Positions 1,658 to 10,058 of a stretch of DNA of 64,000 nt are shown piece by piece. The stretch is taken from NCBI RefSeq assembly GCF_024502345.1, contig NZ_JALDNN010000001.1. The stretch is one strand, 5' to 3'. The notes under the pieces were generated by a model that worked only from the letters and a program-made list of their open reading frames with translations, ran no database searches and was not told the origin of the DNA. Positions within the stretch are counted from its first letter, which is position 1; every line of letters starts with the position of its first letter. A program made the translations under genes and the position numbers. Source of the stretch: Escherichia coli. GTDB lineage: Bacteria > Pseudomonadota > Gammaproteobacteria > Enterobacterales > Enterobacteriaceae.

Positions 1658-2714
1658 GGCTTTGTTGAATAAATCGAACTTTTGCTGAGTTGAAGGATCA
1701 GATCACGTATCTTCCCGACAACGCAGACCGTTCCGTGGCAAAGCAAAAGTTCAAAATCACCAACTGGCCCACCTACAATAAAGCCCTCATCAACCGTGGC
1801 TCCATAACTTTCTGGCTGGATGATGAAGCTATTCAGGCCTGGTATGAGTCAGCAACACCTTCTTCACGAGGCAGACCTCAGCGCTATTCTGACCTTGCCA
1901 TCACGACTGTGCTGGTCATTAAACGCGTATTCAGGCTGACCCTGCGCGCTGCGCAGGGCTTTATTGATTCCATTTTTTCTCTGATGAACGTTCCGCTACG
2001 CTGCCCGGATTACAGCTGTGTCAGCAGGCGGGCAAAGTCGGTTAATGTCAGTTTCAAAACGCCCACCCGGGGTGAAATCGCACACCTGGTAATTGATTCC
2101 ACCGGGCTGAAGGTCTTCGGTGAAGGCGAGTGGAAAGTCAAAAAGCATGGCCAGGAACGCCGCCGTATCTGGCGTAAGCTGCATCTCGCCGTTGACAGTA
2201 AAACACATGAAATCATCTGCGCTGACCTGTCGCTGAACAACGTTACGGACTCAGAGGCCTTCCCCGGGTTAATCCGGCAAACCCACCGGAAAATCAGGTC
2301 AGCCGCCGCCGATGGCGCTTACGATACCCGGCTATGTCACGATGAACTGCGGCGTAAGAAAATCAGCGCGCTTATCCCTCCCCGAAAAGGTGCGGGTTAC
2401 TGGCCCGGTGAATATGCAGACCGTAACCGTGCAGTGGCTAATCAGCGAATGACCGGGAGTAATGCGCGGTGGAAATGGACAACAGATTACAACCGTCGCT
2501 CGATAGCGGAAACGGCGATGTACCGGGTAAAACAGCTGTTCGGGGGTTCACTGACACTGCGTGACTACGATGGTCAGGTTGCAGAGGCTATGGCCCTGGT
2601 ACGAGCGCTGAACAAAATGACGAAAGCAGGTATGCCTGAAAGCGTGCGTATTGCCTGAAAACACAACCCGCTACGGGGGAGACTTACCCGAAATCTGATT
2701 TATTCAACAAAGCC
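1658..2714 (+). mobile_element. IS903-family (IS5 family) insertion sequence, 1057 bp, 18-bp terminal inverted repeats, flanked by 9-bp direct target duplication CCGTCTGTT (1649-1657 and 2715-2723)
   Basis: Left end GGCTTTGTTGAATAAATCG at 1658, right end GATTTATTCAACAAAGCC ending 2714; identical 9-mers on both flanks read directly from sequence; single DDE transposase ORF inside. Confidence 0.9.
1735..2658 (+). CDS. IS903-family DDE transposase (307 aa if GTG start at 1735; six-frame ORF extends to 1690)
   Basis: IS5-family transposase motifs (DSTGLKVFGEGEWKVKKHG..RRIWRKLHLAVD); lies inside the inverted-repeat-bounded element. Confidence 0.8.
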   Translation: MAKQKFKITNWPTYNKALINRGSITFWLDDEAIQAWYESATPSSRGRPQRYSDLAITTVLVIKRVFRLTLRAAQGFIDSIFSLMNVPLRCPDYSCVSRRAKSVNVSFKTPTRGEIAHLVIDSTGLKVFGEGEWKVKKHGQERRRIWRKLHLAVDSKTHEIICADLSLNNVTDSEAFPGLIRQTHRKIRSAAADGAYDTRLCHDELRRKKISALIPPRKGAGYWPGEYADRNRAVANQRMTGSNARWKWTTDYNRRSIAETAMYRVKQLFGGSLTLRDYDGQVAEAMALVRALNKMTKAGMPESVRIA

Positions 2715-2852
2715 CCGTCTGTTTATACCACGGCCAAAAACTAAAGCTGGTAATGGTTCAAAACACTTAATAGTAAAGCGGTTGGCAGACTGCTTGCTGC
2801 TGGCGGCATATACAATGGGAATATCGAAGGATTCAGGGAAACAGCAGACAAG

Positions 2853-3395
2853 TTGGGGGGAGATGCACCTGCTGGTTACGATCAATTTATGGATAACAAA
2901 GGGTTACTCATCGCTGGTGCTTCAATAGTTGCTGGAGCAGTTCTGGGGAGAATGAGACTCCCTGATTTGGAATCACTTGAGCATTTCGGAGCCAGAGGAG
3001 CAGTATCAGGAAGACCATTTAATCCCGACCTTGCCGGTGGTCCAATAGAAAATCTGACGACAGATGGCGTAACAATCAACAGGGAAGGTATCGCTATTGT
3101 TGAAAAACACATAGCCAGATTTGGTCATGACCCTGTAAATGAAGTGATGATCAATAGACTGAAAGACATTGAGAAAGGAAAAATCCCCCCAGAACAAGTA
3201 GATCTTAACTTCTATACTCATGAGTGTCGGGAATATCAGCGTTACTGTAATCTTGGTTGGGAAACAGGACAACCTGATGGTGACGCAGGCTATGCACTCT
3301 GGAATCATACGCATACTGCTACTCTAGAAGATTATAAACTTAAGGGAGAACTTAATGACTTATACCACCAGGATGCACTTGACTATGATAACTGA
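2853..3395 (+). CDS. Orphan toxin-like C-terminal domain ORF (possible extension domain of the disrupted Hcp, Hcp-ET type); frame is open back to 2754 without ATG
   Basis: 180-aa ORF with TTG start and no ATG upstream in frame, directly downstream of hcp/IS; overlaps the next small ORF; no catalytic motif recognised by eye. Confidence 0.35.
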   Translation: MGGDAPAGYDQFMDNKGLLIAGASIVAGAVLGRMRLPDLESLEHFGARGAVSGRPFNPDLAGGPIENLTTDGVTINREGIAIVEKHIARFGHDPVNEVMINRLKDIEKGKIPPEQVDLNFYTHECREYQRYCNLGWETGQPDGDAGYALWNHTHTATLEDYKLKGELNDLYHQDALDYDN

Positions 3396-3914: not shown

Positions 3915-6176
3915 TCATCCCCGACGCAAATTCTGCGCCGCCTGCACCATGTTCGCCAGTGCCGCGCGGGTTTCTGGCCAGCCGCGCGTTTTCAGGCCAC
4001 AGTCCGGGTTGACCCACAGGCGCTCTGCCGGAATGCGTTTTGCCGCTTTCTTCAGCAAGGCTTCAATCCATTCCACGCTCGGTACGTTTGGCGAGTGAAT
4101 GTCATAGACGCCTGGACCGATTTCATTCGGATAATCAAACTCTTCAAACGACTCCAGCAACTCCATGTCGGAACGCGAGGTTTCGATGGTGATGACGTCT
4201 GCATCCAGTGCCGCAATCGAATCCATGATGTCGTTGAACTCGCAATAACACATGTGAGTGTGGATTTGTGTGTCATCTTTCGCCACGGCGGCGTTGATAC
4301 GGAAGGCCTCCACGCCCCACTGGAGATATGCATCCCAGTCGCTACGACGCAGCGGTAAACCTTCGCGCAGCGCCGGTTCATCAATCTGGATGATGCCAAT
4401 TCCTGCGGCTTCCAGGTCCGCCACTTCATCACGCAGCGCCAGCGCAATTTGTTTGGCGATGGTTTCACGGCTGACATCTTCACGCGGGAACGACCAGCAG
4501 AGAATGGTCACCGGGCCAGTCAGCATCCCTTTCACCGGTTTATCAGTCAGAGATTGCGCATACTTCGCCCACTCCACGGTAATCGGTGCCGGGCGGCTAA
4601 TGTCACCAATGACAATCGGTGGCTTCACGCAGCGGGAACCGTAGCTCTGTACCCAACCGTTTTGCGTAAAGACAAATCCGTCGAGGTGCTCGCCAAAGTA
4701 TTCCACCATGTCATTACGCTCGGCCTCGCCATGTACCAGCACATCCAGTCCCAAACGTTCCTGTTCAACAATGGCCTGCTTGATATGTTCCGCAATGCCC
4801 GTGCGGTAGTTGTTGGCGTCGAGATTACCCTTTTTGAAATCCAGACGCAGGGTACGAATTTCCGTGGTTTGCGGGAAGGAACCAATCGTGGTGGTCGGCC
4901 ACGCTGGCAGTTTAAAACGCGCACGCTGGGCTTCGGCACGCACTTCATAGACATTCGCACGCTGGCTGTCCTGGGCGGTGATCGCCGCCAGACGCTTTTC
5001 TACTGCCGGGTTATGTACACGAGTAGAGTGACGACGCGCCTGAATTGGAGCGCTCCACTCTGCCAGAGCTGCCGTATCACCACTGTTCAGCGCATCTCGC
5101 AGCAGTGCCAGTTCATGACATTTTTGCAGGGCGAAGGCAAACCAGCTTTTCACTTCTGCATCAAGACGCGTTTCCACGCTCAGGTCGATGGGGCTGTGCA
5201 GCAACGAGCAGGAAGATGCCACCCACAAATCACGTTTGCCGACAATGTCCTTAATTTGCGCATATTTCTCAGTAAGATCGGCGCGCCAGACGTTACGACC
5301 ATTGATCAGACCCGCAGACAGCAGCCAGTCAGAAGGCAGGCGCTTGTGCAGTTCAACAACGTCATCTTTACCATGTACAAGGTCCACATGCAGCCCCTGA
5401 ACAGGCAGCGCAGTAATCGTGTCGAGATTTGGCGTTACGCCTTCAAAATAGGTGGTCAGCAGCAGTTTCACCTGTCCCTGGAGCGCGTCGTAAGCGGGTT
5501 TGTATGCGTCCAGCCACGCCTGTGGTAGTTCCAGTACCAGCGCGGGTTCATCAATCTGTACCCACTCGATGCCGCGTTTCGCCAGTTCTGCCAGCACTTG
5601 CTGATAAACCGGCAGAATGTCGTTCAGCAGGCTAAGGCGGTCAAACTGTTCACCTTTCACTTTCCCCAGCCACAGGTAAGTAACCGGCCCCAGCAGCACA
5701 GGCTTAACGTTGTGGCCCAGCGCCAGCGCCTCGTCCACTTCCTCCAGCAGCTGCGTCCAGGTCAGTTTGAACTGTTGGCCTTTAACGAACTCCGGCACCA
5801 TGTAGTGATAGTTGGTGTTAAACCATTTGGTCATTTCCGCTGCCGCCGCAGGTTCGCCAGTCGGCGCACGTCCACGACCAATACGGAACAGGGTGTCGAT
5901 ATCTACCGAACCGTCTTTGTTCTGATGACGTGGCGGAACATTACCCAGCAGCAAACTGGTGGTCAGTACATGATCGTACCAGGCAAAATCGCCCACCGGC
6001 AGCAGGTCGATACCCGCTTGCTTTTGTTGATCCCAGTGACGAGCACGCAGTTCACGCCCTACTGTCAGCAGTTCTTCACGCGTGGAGTTCCCCGCCCAAT
6101 AACTTTCTTGCGCTTTTTTCAGCTCGCGACGCAGGCCAACGCGAGGGAAACCGAGGGTGTGATTCAATATTGTCAT
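3915..6176 (-). CDS. metE: Cobalamin-independent methionine synthase
   Basis: 753-aa ORF, N-terminus [29 protein letters not shown] typical of MetE; divergent from metR as in E. coli. Confidence 0.97.
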
Positions 6177-6411
6177 TTTTCTTCCTCTAATTATATGTAA
6201 ATCCTATGGATTTTGAATTTAGGGAAGGCGGCAAGTTTATTCATCCCCGGGAGCTTACTGAAGTAAGTGACCGGGGTGGAGAAACGCAGCCAACGCACCA
6301 TAAATTTAAAAGACGAAGGATTTTAGCCGTCCAGATGTTTACACATCCATAATTGGCGGTTACTGTATATTCCTCAAGCGCAAATTATTCATGCCGAAGT
6401 GAAGGACTTTC
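6177..6411. promoter_or_regulatory. Divergent metE-metR control region (expected MetR and MetJ operator sites); individual sites not resolved
   Basis: Position between divergently transcribed metE and metR; contains a composite palindrome CCCCGGGAGCTTACTGAAGTAAGTGACCGGGG. Confidence 0.4.
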
Positions 6412-7365
6412 ATGATCGAAGTAAAACACCTGAAAACGCTACAAGCGTTGCGGAACTGCGGCTCTCTCGCAGCCGCTGCGGCGACGTTGCATCAGACGCA
6501 ATCCGCCCTGTCTCACCAGTTTAGCGATCTGGAACAACGCCTTGGCTTCCGGCTATTTGTGCGTAAGAGCCAGCCGCTACGCTTTACACCGCAGGGAGAA
6601 ATCCTGTTGCAACTGGCAAACCAGGTGCTGCCGCAAATCAGCCAGGCACTGCAAGCCTGCAATGAACCGCAGCAGACGCGTCTGCGCATTGCCATTGAGT
6701 GCCATAGCTGTATTCAGTGGCTGACGCCCGCGTTAGAAAATTTCCATAAGAACTGGCCGCAGGTAGAGATGGATTTTAAATCGGGCGTGACGTTTGACCC
6801 GCAGCCCGCGTTGCAACAGGGCGAGCTGGATCTGGTGATGACCTCCGATATCCTGCCGCGCAGTGGCCTGCATTATTCGCCGATGTTCGATTATGAAGTA
6901 CGCCTGGTGTTAGCACCTGACCATCCACTGGCGGCAAAAACGCGTATTACACCGGAAGATCTCGCCAGCGAGACGCTATTAATTTATCCGGTGCAGCGTA
7001 GTCGACTGGATGTCTGGCGGCATTTTCTTCAGCCGGCAGGCGTCAGCCCGTCACTGAAAAGCGTCGATAACACCTTATTGTTGATTCAGATGGTTGCCGC
7101 GCGGATGGGTATTGCCGCGCTACCGCATTGGGTAGTAGAGAGTTTTGAGCGCCAGGGTCTGGTGGTGACCAAAACCCTGGGCGAAGGCTTGTGGAGCCGA
7201 CTGTACGCCGCCGTGCGCGATGGCGAGCAGCGTCAGCCAGTTACGGAAGCGTTTATTCGCTCAGCGCGCAATCACGCCTGCGATCATCTGCCGTTTGTGA
7301 AGAGCGCGGAGCGACCCACTTACGATGCACCCACAGTGAGGCCAGGATCACCAGCGCGCCTGTAA
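6412..7365 (+). CDS. metR: LysR-family transcriptional activator of metE/metH
   Basis: 317-aa ORF with N-terminal LysR helix-turn-helix; divergent from metE. Confidence 0.95.
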
Positions 7366-8152
7366 TAAACGTTGGCCAGTGCGGCTGTTGGTGCCAGATA
7401 GCCAGGTTAACCAGCAGCCCTGCCGGAACGTGCATATTATTCATAATGCCCAGCGTTCCGGCGTCCACCTGCGTCGCGCCGTAGTTCCACATAAAGTAGC
7501 CAATCCCGGAAGCCACCACGCCAAGAAACACCAGAATGCCCCATTGCAACGTGGTTTGCGGCATTTTCTGCGCATTTCCCAGCAAGAACCATGCAATTAC
7601 CGCCACCAGGAACGCGCCAAGATAGAACCACGCAAAGGCGTTATGCTGCGGCATCGGGCGAGTTTCCATCAGGCGTTTGTAACCCACCATGCCGATGGCA
7701 AAAGTGATATTGGAGAGTTGCACCAGCAACAAGCCAGTCCAGAAATGGTCGGTGACCTGATCATAGCGAATAATCCCGGCACCAATCACCGCCAACAAGG
7801 CACTAAAAGCATATCCCCAGCGCAGACGGCGCTTACTCATGATGTCATAAATCAGCGTGATGTAGAGCGGCGTCAGTACGGTGAACAGCAGCAGTTCGGA
7901 AACCGTCAGGTAGAGATAAGCGCGGAAACTCAGCATATACATCACGCCGAGCTGCATCGCGCCCACCAGCATATACAGGCCGACTGTTTTCAGGCTATTG
8001 CCACGGGTACGCAGAAACGGCAGAAAAACGAGTGCCGCCAGGCCAACGCGCACCAGCACCGCAAAATAGCTATCGACGTGCCCCGCAAGGTACTCGCCAT
8101 AAAAGCTAAAGGAGAAGGCCCACAGAATCGTGGTGATGATAAGTAGCGCCAC
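7253..8152 (-). CDS. yigM: EamA/DMT-family inner membrane transporter (biotin transporter YigM)
   Basis: 299-aa polytopic membrane ORF; K-12 synteny; 3' end overlaps the metR 3' end convergently. Confidence 0.85.
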
Positions 8153-8227
8153 AATGGAAAACTCTTTGATTAACGAGTATCCATTGTAGCGAAGTATCAG
8201 GTTGACAACTGACCAAATAAAGAACGA

Positions 8228-9028
8228 TTACGATAAATAGAGTTTACGCAGATAATGCGGCACCGCGTCGTCGGCATTAGTACCAATCACTTCCAGCTCG
8301 GGATGAAGGTCTTTCAGACGCTGGTGCGCACTGCCCATAATGCAGCCTTTCCCCGCCATCGACAGCATTTCGGCATCGTTCATCCCGTCACCAAACGCAA
8401 TACAATCCTTCAGGCTGTAGCCCAGTTTCTTCGCCACCGCTTCCAGCGCATGGCCTTTTGAAACGCCGCCCGCCATCACTTCCAGACAGGTTAAGGTAGA
8501 GAAACTAACGTTGACGCGATCGCCCCAACGAGCGTTAATCGCCTGCTCCAGCGGCAGCAGTTGTTCATGGGAATCGCAGGTGAAGAACACTTTGCTGACG
8601 CCTTCCGGCTCCAGTAATCCAGGCTCATACAGCGCATATTTGAACACCGCTTCTTTAAAAAAGCGCATCTCTTCCGGGCGATGGCGATTCATAAACCATT
8701 CGTCGTCGCGATAAACGTTAGTAATGATGTCCGGATTGTCGTTGACTACGCCAAACAGATCGCTGGCAATGTCGCGATCCAGGTTATGAGCAAAAATCAG
8801 ATTGCCATCCAGATCGTGAACGCGCGCGCCGTTGGAGGTGATCATGTACGACTTGATCTCCAGATTATCGCGAATTTGCCCCACATCAACGTGGTGACGA
8901 CCGGTCGCAAACACAAAGTTGATGCCGCGCGCGGTGAGCAGCTTCAGGGTTTCTTTGGCGTAAGGGGATAACGTATGGTCGGGAGAAAGTAACGTGCCAT
9001 CTAAATCAGACGCAACAACCTGGTACAT
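8228..9028 (-). CDS. yigL: HAD-family Cof-type sugar/pyridoxal phosphate phosphatase
   Basis: Start taken at MYQVVASDLDGTLL (HAD motif I DxDGT); longer six-frame ORF to 9154 rejected; downstream of pldB in same orientation. Confidence 0.85.
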   Translation of the reverse strand: MYQVVASDLDGTLLSPDHTLSPYAKETLKLLTARGINFVFATGRHHVDVGQIRDNLEIKSYMITSNGARVHDLDGNLIFAHNLDRDIASDLFGVVNDNPDIITNVYRDDEWFMNRHRPEEMRFFKEAVFKYALYEPGLLEPEGVSKVFFTCDSHEQLLPLEQAINARWGDRVNVSFSTLTCLEVMAGGVSKGHALEAVAKKLGYSLKDCIAFGDGMNDAEMLSMAGKGCIMGSAHQRLKDLHPELEVIGTNADDAVPHYLRKLYLS

Positions 9029-9035
9029 AAGAAAT

Positions 9036-10058
9036 TTAAACCTCTGTAGAGCGGTTTCCGCTGGGTGAGTTATGCCTGTTGAAAAAATCAACAATGGCGT
9101 GGAGCGCGACTGAGCGCATTGCGTCCTTTTCAAAAAGGATCTCATGGTAAGCACCTTTAATTACCAACGGTCGTCCTCCTTCGACAGGATGGCCCGCGGC
9201 GGTGCGGAGTTCACAAAAACGGTCATGCATGCGGTTATCCACCACGCGTTCCTCTTCAGCCTGCAAGAGAAGCGTTGGCGTGGCGTCATCACCCGCACCG
9301 GCTAACACCTGTTCGCCAGCCAGAATACTTTCGCGTACCCAATGGTAGGTCGGCCCACCGACGCGAATCGTTGGGTCATCAGCATAGAAGCGTAAGTTAC
9401 GTCGATATCGCTGTCTGCTGTGGGTCAGTACGTTGATAGCAAACGGCAACGCGCGCCAGCGCCCGGTGCCTATTGCATAGCCATCACGGAAACGTGGATG
9501 CGCTTCGGCCCAGTTGAGGATCTGCCGTGCCATAAATGACGGCATACGAATCACGATCCCAAACATTGGCGCAGTTAGCGCAATGGCGTCACATACACCT
9601 GGATGGCGTTGCAGAAATAATGTGGAGATCGCACCGCCCATCGAATGTGCCAGTATATAGCGTTTACGCCACGGACCGGGCTGGACCTCCTGTTGCCAGA
9701 ATGCCGCCAGATCATCAACATAATCATTAAAGCGATTAACATGCCCGAGATGCGGATCGGCTAACAGGCGACCGGAACGTCCCTGCCCGCGATGGTCGAT
9801 GATTAAGACATCAAACCCCAAATGGAACAAATCGTAGGCCAGTTCCGCATATTTTACGTAGCTCTCAATACGCCCCGGGCAGATGACTACCACCCGGTCA
9901 TGGTGCTGTGCGCGAAAACGGACAAAGCGCACCGGAATGTCATCCACACCAGTAAACTCTGCTTCATCACGCTGACGCCAGAAATCAGTCAGCGGTCCCA
10001 TGGTAAAAGCAGCAAACGCGTTTTCTCTTGTTTCCCAGTCTTTTTGCTGTTGAAACAT
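9036..10058 (-). CDS. pldB: Lysophospholipase L2
   Basis: 340-aa alpha/beta hydrolase with HSMGG nucleophile motif; synteny. Confidence 0.9.
   Translation of the reverse strand: MFQQQKDWETRENAFAAFTMGPLTDFWRQRDEAEFTGVDDIPVRFVRFRAQHHDRVVVICPGRIESYVKYAELAYDLFHLGFDVLIIDHRGQGRSGRLLADPHLGHVNRFNDYVDDLAAFWQQEVQPGPWRKRYILAHSMGGAISTLFLQRHPGVCDAIALTAPMFGIVIRMPSFMARQILNWAEAHPRFRDGYAIGTGRWRALPFAINVLTHSRQRYRRNLRFYADDPTIRVGGPTYHWVRESILAGEQVLAGAGDDATPTLLLQAEEERVVDNRMHDRFCELRTAAGHPVEGGRPLVIKGAYHEILFEKDAMRSVALHAIVDFFNRHNSPSGNRSTEV

Follow-up and report, generated by a model that had tools for sequence, protein, structure and literature searches.

The genes metR and yigM of Escherichia coli converge and run past each other at their 3' ends, which raises the question whether the segment they share is an error of annotation, a stretch encoding two functional protein ends, a regulatory device or a structural by-product. 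In the window analysed here, a stretch of 64,000 nucleotides of E. coli DNA in which the gene order is metE, metR, yigM (bioP) and yigL, metR occupies positions 6412-7365 of the plus strand (317 amino acids, ATG start) and encodes the LysR-type regulator of metE and metH. On the minus strand, yigM, also named bioP, occupies positions 7253-8152 (299 amino acids, GTG start) and encodes an EamA/DMT biotin transporter; both assignments are based on the ORF list, Pfam and RefSeq. The tail-to-tail overlap spans 7253-7365 on both strands and comprises MetR residues 281-317 and YigM residues 263-299, each with its stop codon. The metR stop is TAA at 7363-7365, and the yigM stop is read as TTA, the complement of TAA, at 7253-7255. 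An earlier note on this DNA had put the overlap at about 113 bp; the ORF list, the sequence and RefSeq all give 113 nt, so that the figure was correct to the base. The two frames lie in an antisense phase in which the first codon positions of metR and yigM face each other, metR position 2 faces yigM position 3, and metR position 3 faces yigM position 2. RefSeq records the same overlap geometry in the closest E. coli genome (L001; metR 1613-2566, bioP 2454-3353), and in K-12 MG1655, with bioP at 4011076-4011975 and metR at 4011863-4012816, the overlap is again 113 nt.

Both metR and yigM are genuine functional genes, and they are mutually unrelated. MetR carries an HTH_1 domain at residues 5-63 (E=4.3e-18) and a LysR_substrate domain at residues 86-288 (E=3.4e-48), as a LysR-type regulator should, and the structure PDB 5fo5 is identical to its N-terminal domain, residues 1-92. 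YigM carries two EamA domains, the second ending at residue 275, and its AF2 model consists of 10 helices (mean pLDDT 91.6, pTM 0.87), in agreement with an EamA/DMT transporter. The RefSeq product name is 'bioP: biotin transporter', and YigM is established as such (PMC5120140, PMC4049904). The overlap is real, ordinary, already annotated and noted in the literature, and neither a new kind of element nor a new question arises from it. In fact, it was noted by Côté et al. 2016 (PMC5120140), where the Keio metR deletion was found to disrupt yigM, which renders the strain sensitive to a BioA inhibitor and makes the deletion synthetically lethal with bioA. The locus of that study is identical to the present one, to which our analysis adds the conservation of the overlap and the division of constraint along it.

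The overlap is conserved far beyond E. coli. Of 5,426 complete E. coli genomes, 5,423 carry the 2-kb region with an identity of at least 95%. A MetR-based genome scan listed 80 species-level loci, all from Enterobacteriaceae and with MetR identities of about 90% or higher. In 76 of these 80 listed species the overlap measures 113 nt with both stops at identical positions, while YigM identity goes down to about 81%. The exceptions are Citrobacter gillenii (L022), with an overlap of 98 nt and a MetR of 312 amino acids, two loci with 116 nt (L035 and L078), and Enterobacteriaceae bacterium MGYG-HGUT-00110 (L063), with 68 nt and a YigM of 284 amino acids. The last belongs to a set of natural YigM variants of 284-285 amino acids (L063/P0075, P0072 and P0076) that are without the last 14-15 residues; the cluster P0076 represents 66 Salmonella sequences, serovar Gaminara being named, and another cluster of short YigM represents 42. 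One further listed locus, L053 (CACSKA010000013.1), is titled 'Chryseobacterium sp. 18061' and contains a typical enterobacterial metE-metR-yigM locus with a MetR 92% identical to that of E. coli; this assembly is probably mislabelled or contaminated.

Beyond the Enterobacteriaceae, the overlap was likewise found to be 113 nt in Yersinia, 95 nt in Pectobacterium and Rahnella, and 98 nt in Dickeya. A distance of 841 nt separates the metR start from the yigM stop in E. coli, in the same 76 of 80 Enterobacteriaceae, and in Yersinia, Rahnella, Pectobacterium and Dickeya. This conservation of geometry exceeds chance, unlike the length of the overlap, which is taken up below. The YigM homologue search from E. 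coli reached matches of at least 82% identity, and the outgroups came from a search of cluster representatives. One such representative, P0123 at locus L082 ('57% identical' YigM), was considered as a distant outgroup and rejected, as it is a Dickeya sequence with apparent assembly frameshifts. In this Dickeya-like Logan assembly (SRR11696187), an internal stretch of the product of yigM, at L082 556-1455, reads as an out-of-frame translation and resembles the alternative-frame ORF at window positions 7437-7631. A compensating pair of frameshifts, probably assembly errors, would explain the odd stretch; these frameshifts lowered the apparent identity to 57% and hence produced a separate 50% cluster representative.

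In other lineages the two genes are separated. They remain convergent in two Serratia lineages, with gaps of 32 and 45 nt, a MetR of 316 and a YigM of 286-287 amino acids, and in Mixta, with a 476-nt spacer, a MetR of 307 and a YigM of 282 amino acids. In Pantoea a DUF1456 gene stands between metR and yigM (MetR 313, YigM 287 amino acids). The spacer has thus expanded in Erwiniaceae to 476-640 nt: in Mixta calida (L093 3425-3900, 476 nt) it contains an extra small ORF of 82 amino acids, and in Pantoea sp. B65 (L095 3443-4082, 640 nt) it contains the DUF1456 gene. In Vibrio and Microbulbifer the YigM homologue does not adjoin metR. The two Serratia gaps hold GC-rich hairpins located exactly between the metR and yigM stops. 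That of the Serratia liquefaciens type (L092 3452-3483) reads GGGCAGC...GCTGCCC followed by a T-run, a terminator-like element with a 10-bp stem; the other (L096 3452-3496) reads CCCCGG...CCGGGG with a flanking A-run.

The simplest reading of this distribution, which was drawn from nine loci outside Enterobacteriaceae, would be that a single origin of the overlap predates the split of Enterobacteriaceae, Yersiniaceae and Pectobacteriaceae, Serratia and Erwiniaceae having subsequently lost it. The Serratia MetR tail (RPNAAPPVAKPLAPQP) is still like the overlapped-type tails of Enterobacter (RPNGDAPTAKPGSPFPQ), a likeness that hints at a parting of the genes by duplication of the shared segment. 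On examination, the two Serratia copies were found to align mutually no better than shuffles (P=0.1-0.6), which gives this route no backing at the nucleotide level; each copy does align to the single Rahnella segment. The duplication route is accordingly tentative and draws on the resemblance of the protein tails only.

How the shared nucleotides are used was approached by an ungapped alignment of 78 loci (1,741 nt), in which per-site entropy was calculated by codon position. Outside the overlap the mean entropy is 0.18, 0.08 and 0.92 at metR codon positions 1, 2 and 3, and 0.31, 0.13 and about 1.03-1.04 at those of yigM. Within the overlap the variation pattern changes from the metR type to the yigM type, with a frozen zone of 13 nt between. 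The first zone, 7253-7305, evolves as metR: it encodes MetR 281-298, the end of the LysR effector domain, opposite the YigM tail 283-299 and stop, and its variation is almost confined to metR position 3 (equal to yigM position 2), with an entropy of 0.63 vs 0.09 at metR position 2. The last zone, 7319-7365, evolves as yigM: it encodes TM10 and the HR(K/R)W motif, YigM 263-278, opposite the MetR tail 303-317 and stop, and it varies at yigM position 3, with an entropy of 0.98 vs 0.23 at yigM position 2. Between them, about 13 nt at 7306-7318 are frozen in both frames, encoding MetR A299-E-R-P302 and YigM W279-V-A-P282. Only one of these 13 sites is variable, which puts the zone in the top 0.17% of the alignment's 13-nt windows by conservation. 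The only other 13-nt stretch as invariant lies at window positions 6520-6533, in the HTH-coding part of metR. Over the whole overlap, variability is slightly below that of the flanks (0.346 vs 0.392 and 0.488).

A synonymous-site test, limited to codons with an invariant amino acid, gave a consistent division. Opposite the MetR tail, synonymous sites of yigM vary as freely as they do elsewhere (1.25 vs 1.35, P=0.25), and the metR four-fold sites opposite the YigM tail are also free (1.22 vs 1.12). The metR two-fold sites opposite the YigM tail are depressed, at 0.38 vs 0.66 elsewhere (P=0.005, n=7), and with the frozen zone included the synonymous sites of both frames are depressed (P=0.0075 and 0.0009). 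Because of these results, the MetR tail 303-317 is considered to impose no measurable constraint and dual coding to extend over about 13 nt; the YigM tail 283-299 may impose a weak constraint at most. Purifying selection on both frames was thus looked for throughout the 113 nt and found only at 7306-7318. The earlier note had proposed that the shared 3' sequence constrains both genes, which holds for these 13 nt or so and fails for the remainder of the 113.

The protein tails are in keeping with this division. Both are hypervariable, and their few fixed residues are those set by codon positions 1 and 2 of the partner. The alignment shows that the tail sequences are dictated mainly by the partner's codons, with near-free evolution at the protein level. 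The effector-domain structure of Neisseria meningitidis MetR (4ab5) can be aligned with residues 87-296 of the E. coli protein and stops some six residues further on. Distant YigM homologues (35-50% identity) align only to residues 275-285 or so, and beyond helix 10 their tails, 4-30 residues long, cannot be aligned. The constrained part of MetR therefore appears to reach residue 302 or so and that of YigM residue 282 or so, the tails beyond being dispensable-looking. The AF2 model gives a pLDDT of about 70 over YigM residues 281-299 and shows this tail as a continuation of helix 10 and not as obvious disorder, which counts against the view of a free tail. Furthermore, a Pro-rich MetR tail of 10-20 residues persists even in non-overlapped taxa, and given this retention the tail may carry a function. 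The earlier note had also supposed that one of the stops might lie beyond the functional C-terminus. The conserved cores do end early, but the stops themselves are genuine and conserved. A comparison of ortholog C-termini revealed proteins ending before the overlap only outside the overlap-bearing clade, and within the clade both full lengths are conserved.

Why the stops have stayed in place can be read from the codons opposite them. Opposite the yigM stop lie the second and third bases of MetR Phe281 together with the first of Ile282, and both Phe codons, TTT and TTC, yield a stop there, either TAA or TGA. The metR stop (TAA or TGA) in turn pairs with YigM Ile/Leu263 (NTY) and the opening base of codon 264. 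The stops thus stay in place because they are embedded in conserved codons of the partner, through purifying selection on that partner. The invariant metR third positions 7254 and 7257 were considered as a sign of selection for the yigM stop, a candidate that was rejected since either Phe codon gives a stop and since TTT is also retained in the non-overlapping genes of Serratia and Mixta. Based on 37 long ORFs of the window, stops occur in this antisense phase at 0.044 per codon. A stop-free run of 37 codons then has a probability of about 0.17-0.19, and tails of 15-17 codons have one of about 0.45-0.5, so that the overlap length is unremarkable once the genes interpenetrate.

Transcription of the two genes must end within this compact arrangement. 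No sigma-70-like promoter or intrinsic terminator pattern was found in 7000-7700 or near the overlap in a scan of 6100-9300, whose sole weak terminator match falls within yigL (8543-8560). When both strands of 7253-7365 and its flanks were folded as RNA, the z scores ranged from -0.61 to +0.61 vs shuffled sequences, a range without a structure signal. A hidden bidirectional hairpin terminator in the overlap was therefore dropped as a candidate, its folding being no more stable than that of the shuffles. With no room for a terminator in the overlap, both transcripts must extend into the partner gene and end there. For the bioP sense strand, a Rho termination region with its peak at K-12 position 4011704 (plus strand) was recorded by Adams et al. 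2021 (PMC7815308, supplementary file 2); mapped via the MG1655 gene coordinates, this peak falls at about 7524 on the minus strand of the window. Its Rho score is 5.07 (p=1.3e-12), and coverage downstream/upstream amounts to 326/300 under bicyclomycin and to 21/98 in its absence (PMC7815308). The region, located some 270 nt before the yigM stop, was classed as 'internal' to that gene (PMC7815308); its resolution of about 800 nt covers the bioP 3' end and the metR antisense, a span over which action inside the ORF and action after the stop look alike. Neither metR nor yigM figures in the curated Term-seq table of 3' ends of the same study (PMC7815308). Given the coding overlap, the missing terminator and the Rho termination on the bioP strand, the two mRNAs must share a complementary stretch of 113 nt or more. 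Antisense or transcriptional interference, which the earlier note had allowed for, is physically possible at metR/bioP. In the literature on mutual effects of metR and bioP on expression, only the deletion-polarity observation was found.

These data bear on several explanations of the overlap. [quoted passage not shown] 2008, PMC2478687). At this locus the stops are unambiguous, the ORFs recur across dozens of genera and in nearly every complete E. coli genome, each protein matches its family over the whole length, and the metR deletion phenocopies loss of yigM (PMC5120140), so that an artefact is effectively refuted. A more substantial proposal is that all 113 nt are dual-coding and both tails functional, the Pro-rich MetR tail making protein contacts, for instance, and the Arg-rich YigM tail serving membrane topology or turnover, with purifying selection on both. 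The constancy of the lengths 317 and 299 in 76 of 80 species speaks for it, as do the depressed two-fold metR sites, the somewhat lowered variability of the overlap and the Pro-rich MetR tail of taxa without overlap. However, the tails differ at most positions between genera, their fixed residues coincide with the partner's codon positions 1 and 2, the yigM synonymous sites opposite the MetR tail are unconstrained, natural truncated variants persist, and the constancy of length follows from the embedding of the stops in the partner's conserved codons. Functional coding by both frames throughout is for these reasons held to be improbable.

Hardly more credit, though slightly more, is given to the proposal that the overlap was selected as a regulatory coupling, in which polymerase collision, or complementary mRNA ends cleaved by RNase III as in an excludon, would tune metR and bioP reciprocally. 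In its favour, the transcripts are complementary over at least 113 nt with no terminator between the stops, Rho limits bioP read-through into metR antisense, the convergent metR-yigM adjacency has been kept across Enterobacterales and the overlap is old, and collision-driven termination at convergent E. coli pairs has been documented in general (10.1101/2022.10.23.513370). Coupling is nevertheless dispensable, for in two Serratia species, Mixta and Pantoea the genes are separated, with a terminator-like hairpin or an inserted gene. Furthermore, no sequence constraint beyond that of both proteins was detected, the synonymous sites of 7253-7305 and 7319-7365 being largely free, and there is no conserved RNA structure; the same preprint names neither metR nor yigM (10.1101/2022.10.23.513370), and a search of the literature found no link between their expression. 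A bolder form of this proposal starts from the persistence of the overlap over hundreds of millions of years in three families, and supposes that convergent transcription or complementary 3' ends couple MetR, and with it methionine and SAM, reciprocally to BioP. Biotin synthesis consumes SAM. If the supposition were true, SAM-consuming biotin synthesis would be linked to biotin uptake, and Serratia and Erwiniaceae would have swapped the coupling for an ordinary terminator; we regard this as quite improbable, about on a par with functional coding of the whole segment by both frames.

An ancient and genuine overlap that is largely a structural by-product rather than a device is our preferred explanation, to which we assign a probability of about 0.8. 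In this by-product model, the ancestor of Enterobacteriaceae, Yersiniaceae and Pectobacteriaceae would have lost the spacer between convergent metR and yigM, a loss that would have set the conserved C-terminal cores of MetR and YigM side by side. Each frame would then have extended antisense to the partner's coding sequence up to the first in-frame stop. The metR-strand transcript would presumably also be ended inside the partner gene by Rho, and any antisense effect would probably be a tolerated side effect.

Comparable arrangements have been described. A survey of 338 genomes by Pallejà, Harrington & Bork 2008 (PMC2478687) concluded that only convergent overlaps could be real among those longer than 60 bp, and of 178 such overlaps it kept 54 as candidates, the majority of which were confined to very close species, and put the others down to 3'-extension errors. 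Real overlaps of this sort are believed to form when a stop or spacer is lost and the gene lengthens at its 3' end (PMC2478687). By the features on which Pallejà 2008 and Rogozin 2002 relied, the metR/bioP pair shares 3' nucleotides, consists of genuine genes with ortholog-consistent lengths, and occurs in more than two genomes. Like the cases of Pallejà 2008 and of Rogozin et al. 2002, the latter as cited by the former, it joins bona fide opposite-strand genes with shared 3' ends of more than 60 bp and lengths that agree among orthologs; unlike most cases of Pallejà 2008, it spans at least three families of Enterobacterales. It therefore belongs to the class of real overlaps and is unusually widely conserved. 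In the supplements of Pallejà 2008 (PMC2478687), the pair was not found under metR, yigM, b3827 or b3828.

Complementary RNAs from convergent neighbours have been assigned a function elsewhere. In the Listeria excludons, convergent neighbours produce complementary RNAs with an experimentally shown regulatory effect. In E. coli, arfA/mscL (PMC10070815) likewise consists of convergent neighbours whose complementary RNAs permit antisense regulation, as metR/bioP does; the regulatory effect of arfA/mscL was shown experimentally, whereas metR/bioP is known here from its sequence and is uncoupled in several lineages. Bidirectional terminators of Ju et al. 2019, as outlined by Wang et al. 2022 (10.1101/2022.10.23.513370), resemble the locus in being convergent pairs with 3'-overlapping transcripts and no canonical intrinsic terminator. 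According to the same outline, those sites lie between genes with a pausing hairpin in a short overlap region, whereas the metR/bioP overlap is coding and its hairpin z score is about 0. Neither strand of 7253-7365 or its flanks yielded such a hairpin in the region of transcript overlap. Termination independent of Rho would be expected of a member of this class; the bioP strand is recorded as Rho-dependent.

The overlap matters for genetic work on either gene. A mutation that removes or inserts sequence in the 3' portion of either one affects both, and by the same geometry a yigM deletion must take out the last 30 or so codons of MetR, reaching into the effector domain. Since the 3' ends are shared, phenotypes attributed to metR or yigM alone need checking. 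Apart from this, metR/bioP offers a clean and well-sampled case of a long convergent overlap that persists cheaply, nearly all of its DNA working for a single protein at any one place and its stops being fixed by the partner, and that some lineages have undone. Next to yigM, and outside the overlap finding, the yigL ORF on the minus strand (window 8228-9154) was read from a GTG start as 308 amino acids, compared with 266 amino acids (801 nt) in RefSeq; the longer ORF merely reflects a candidate in-frame start further upstream.
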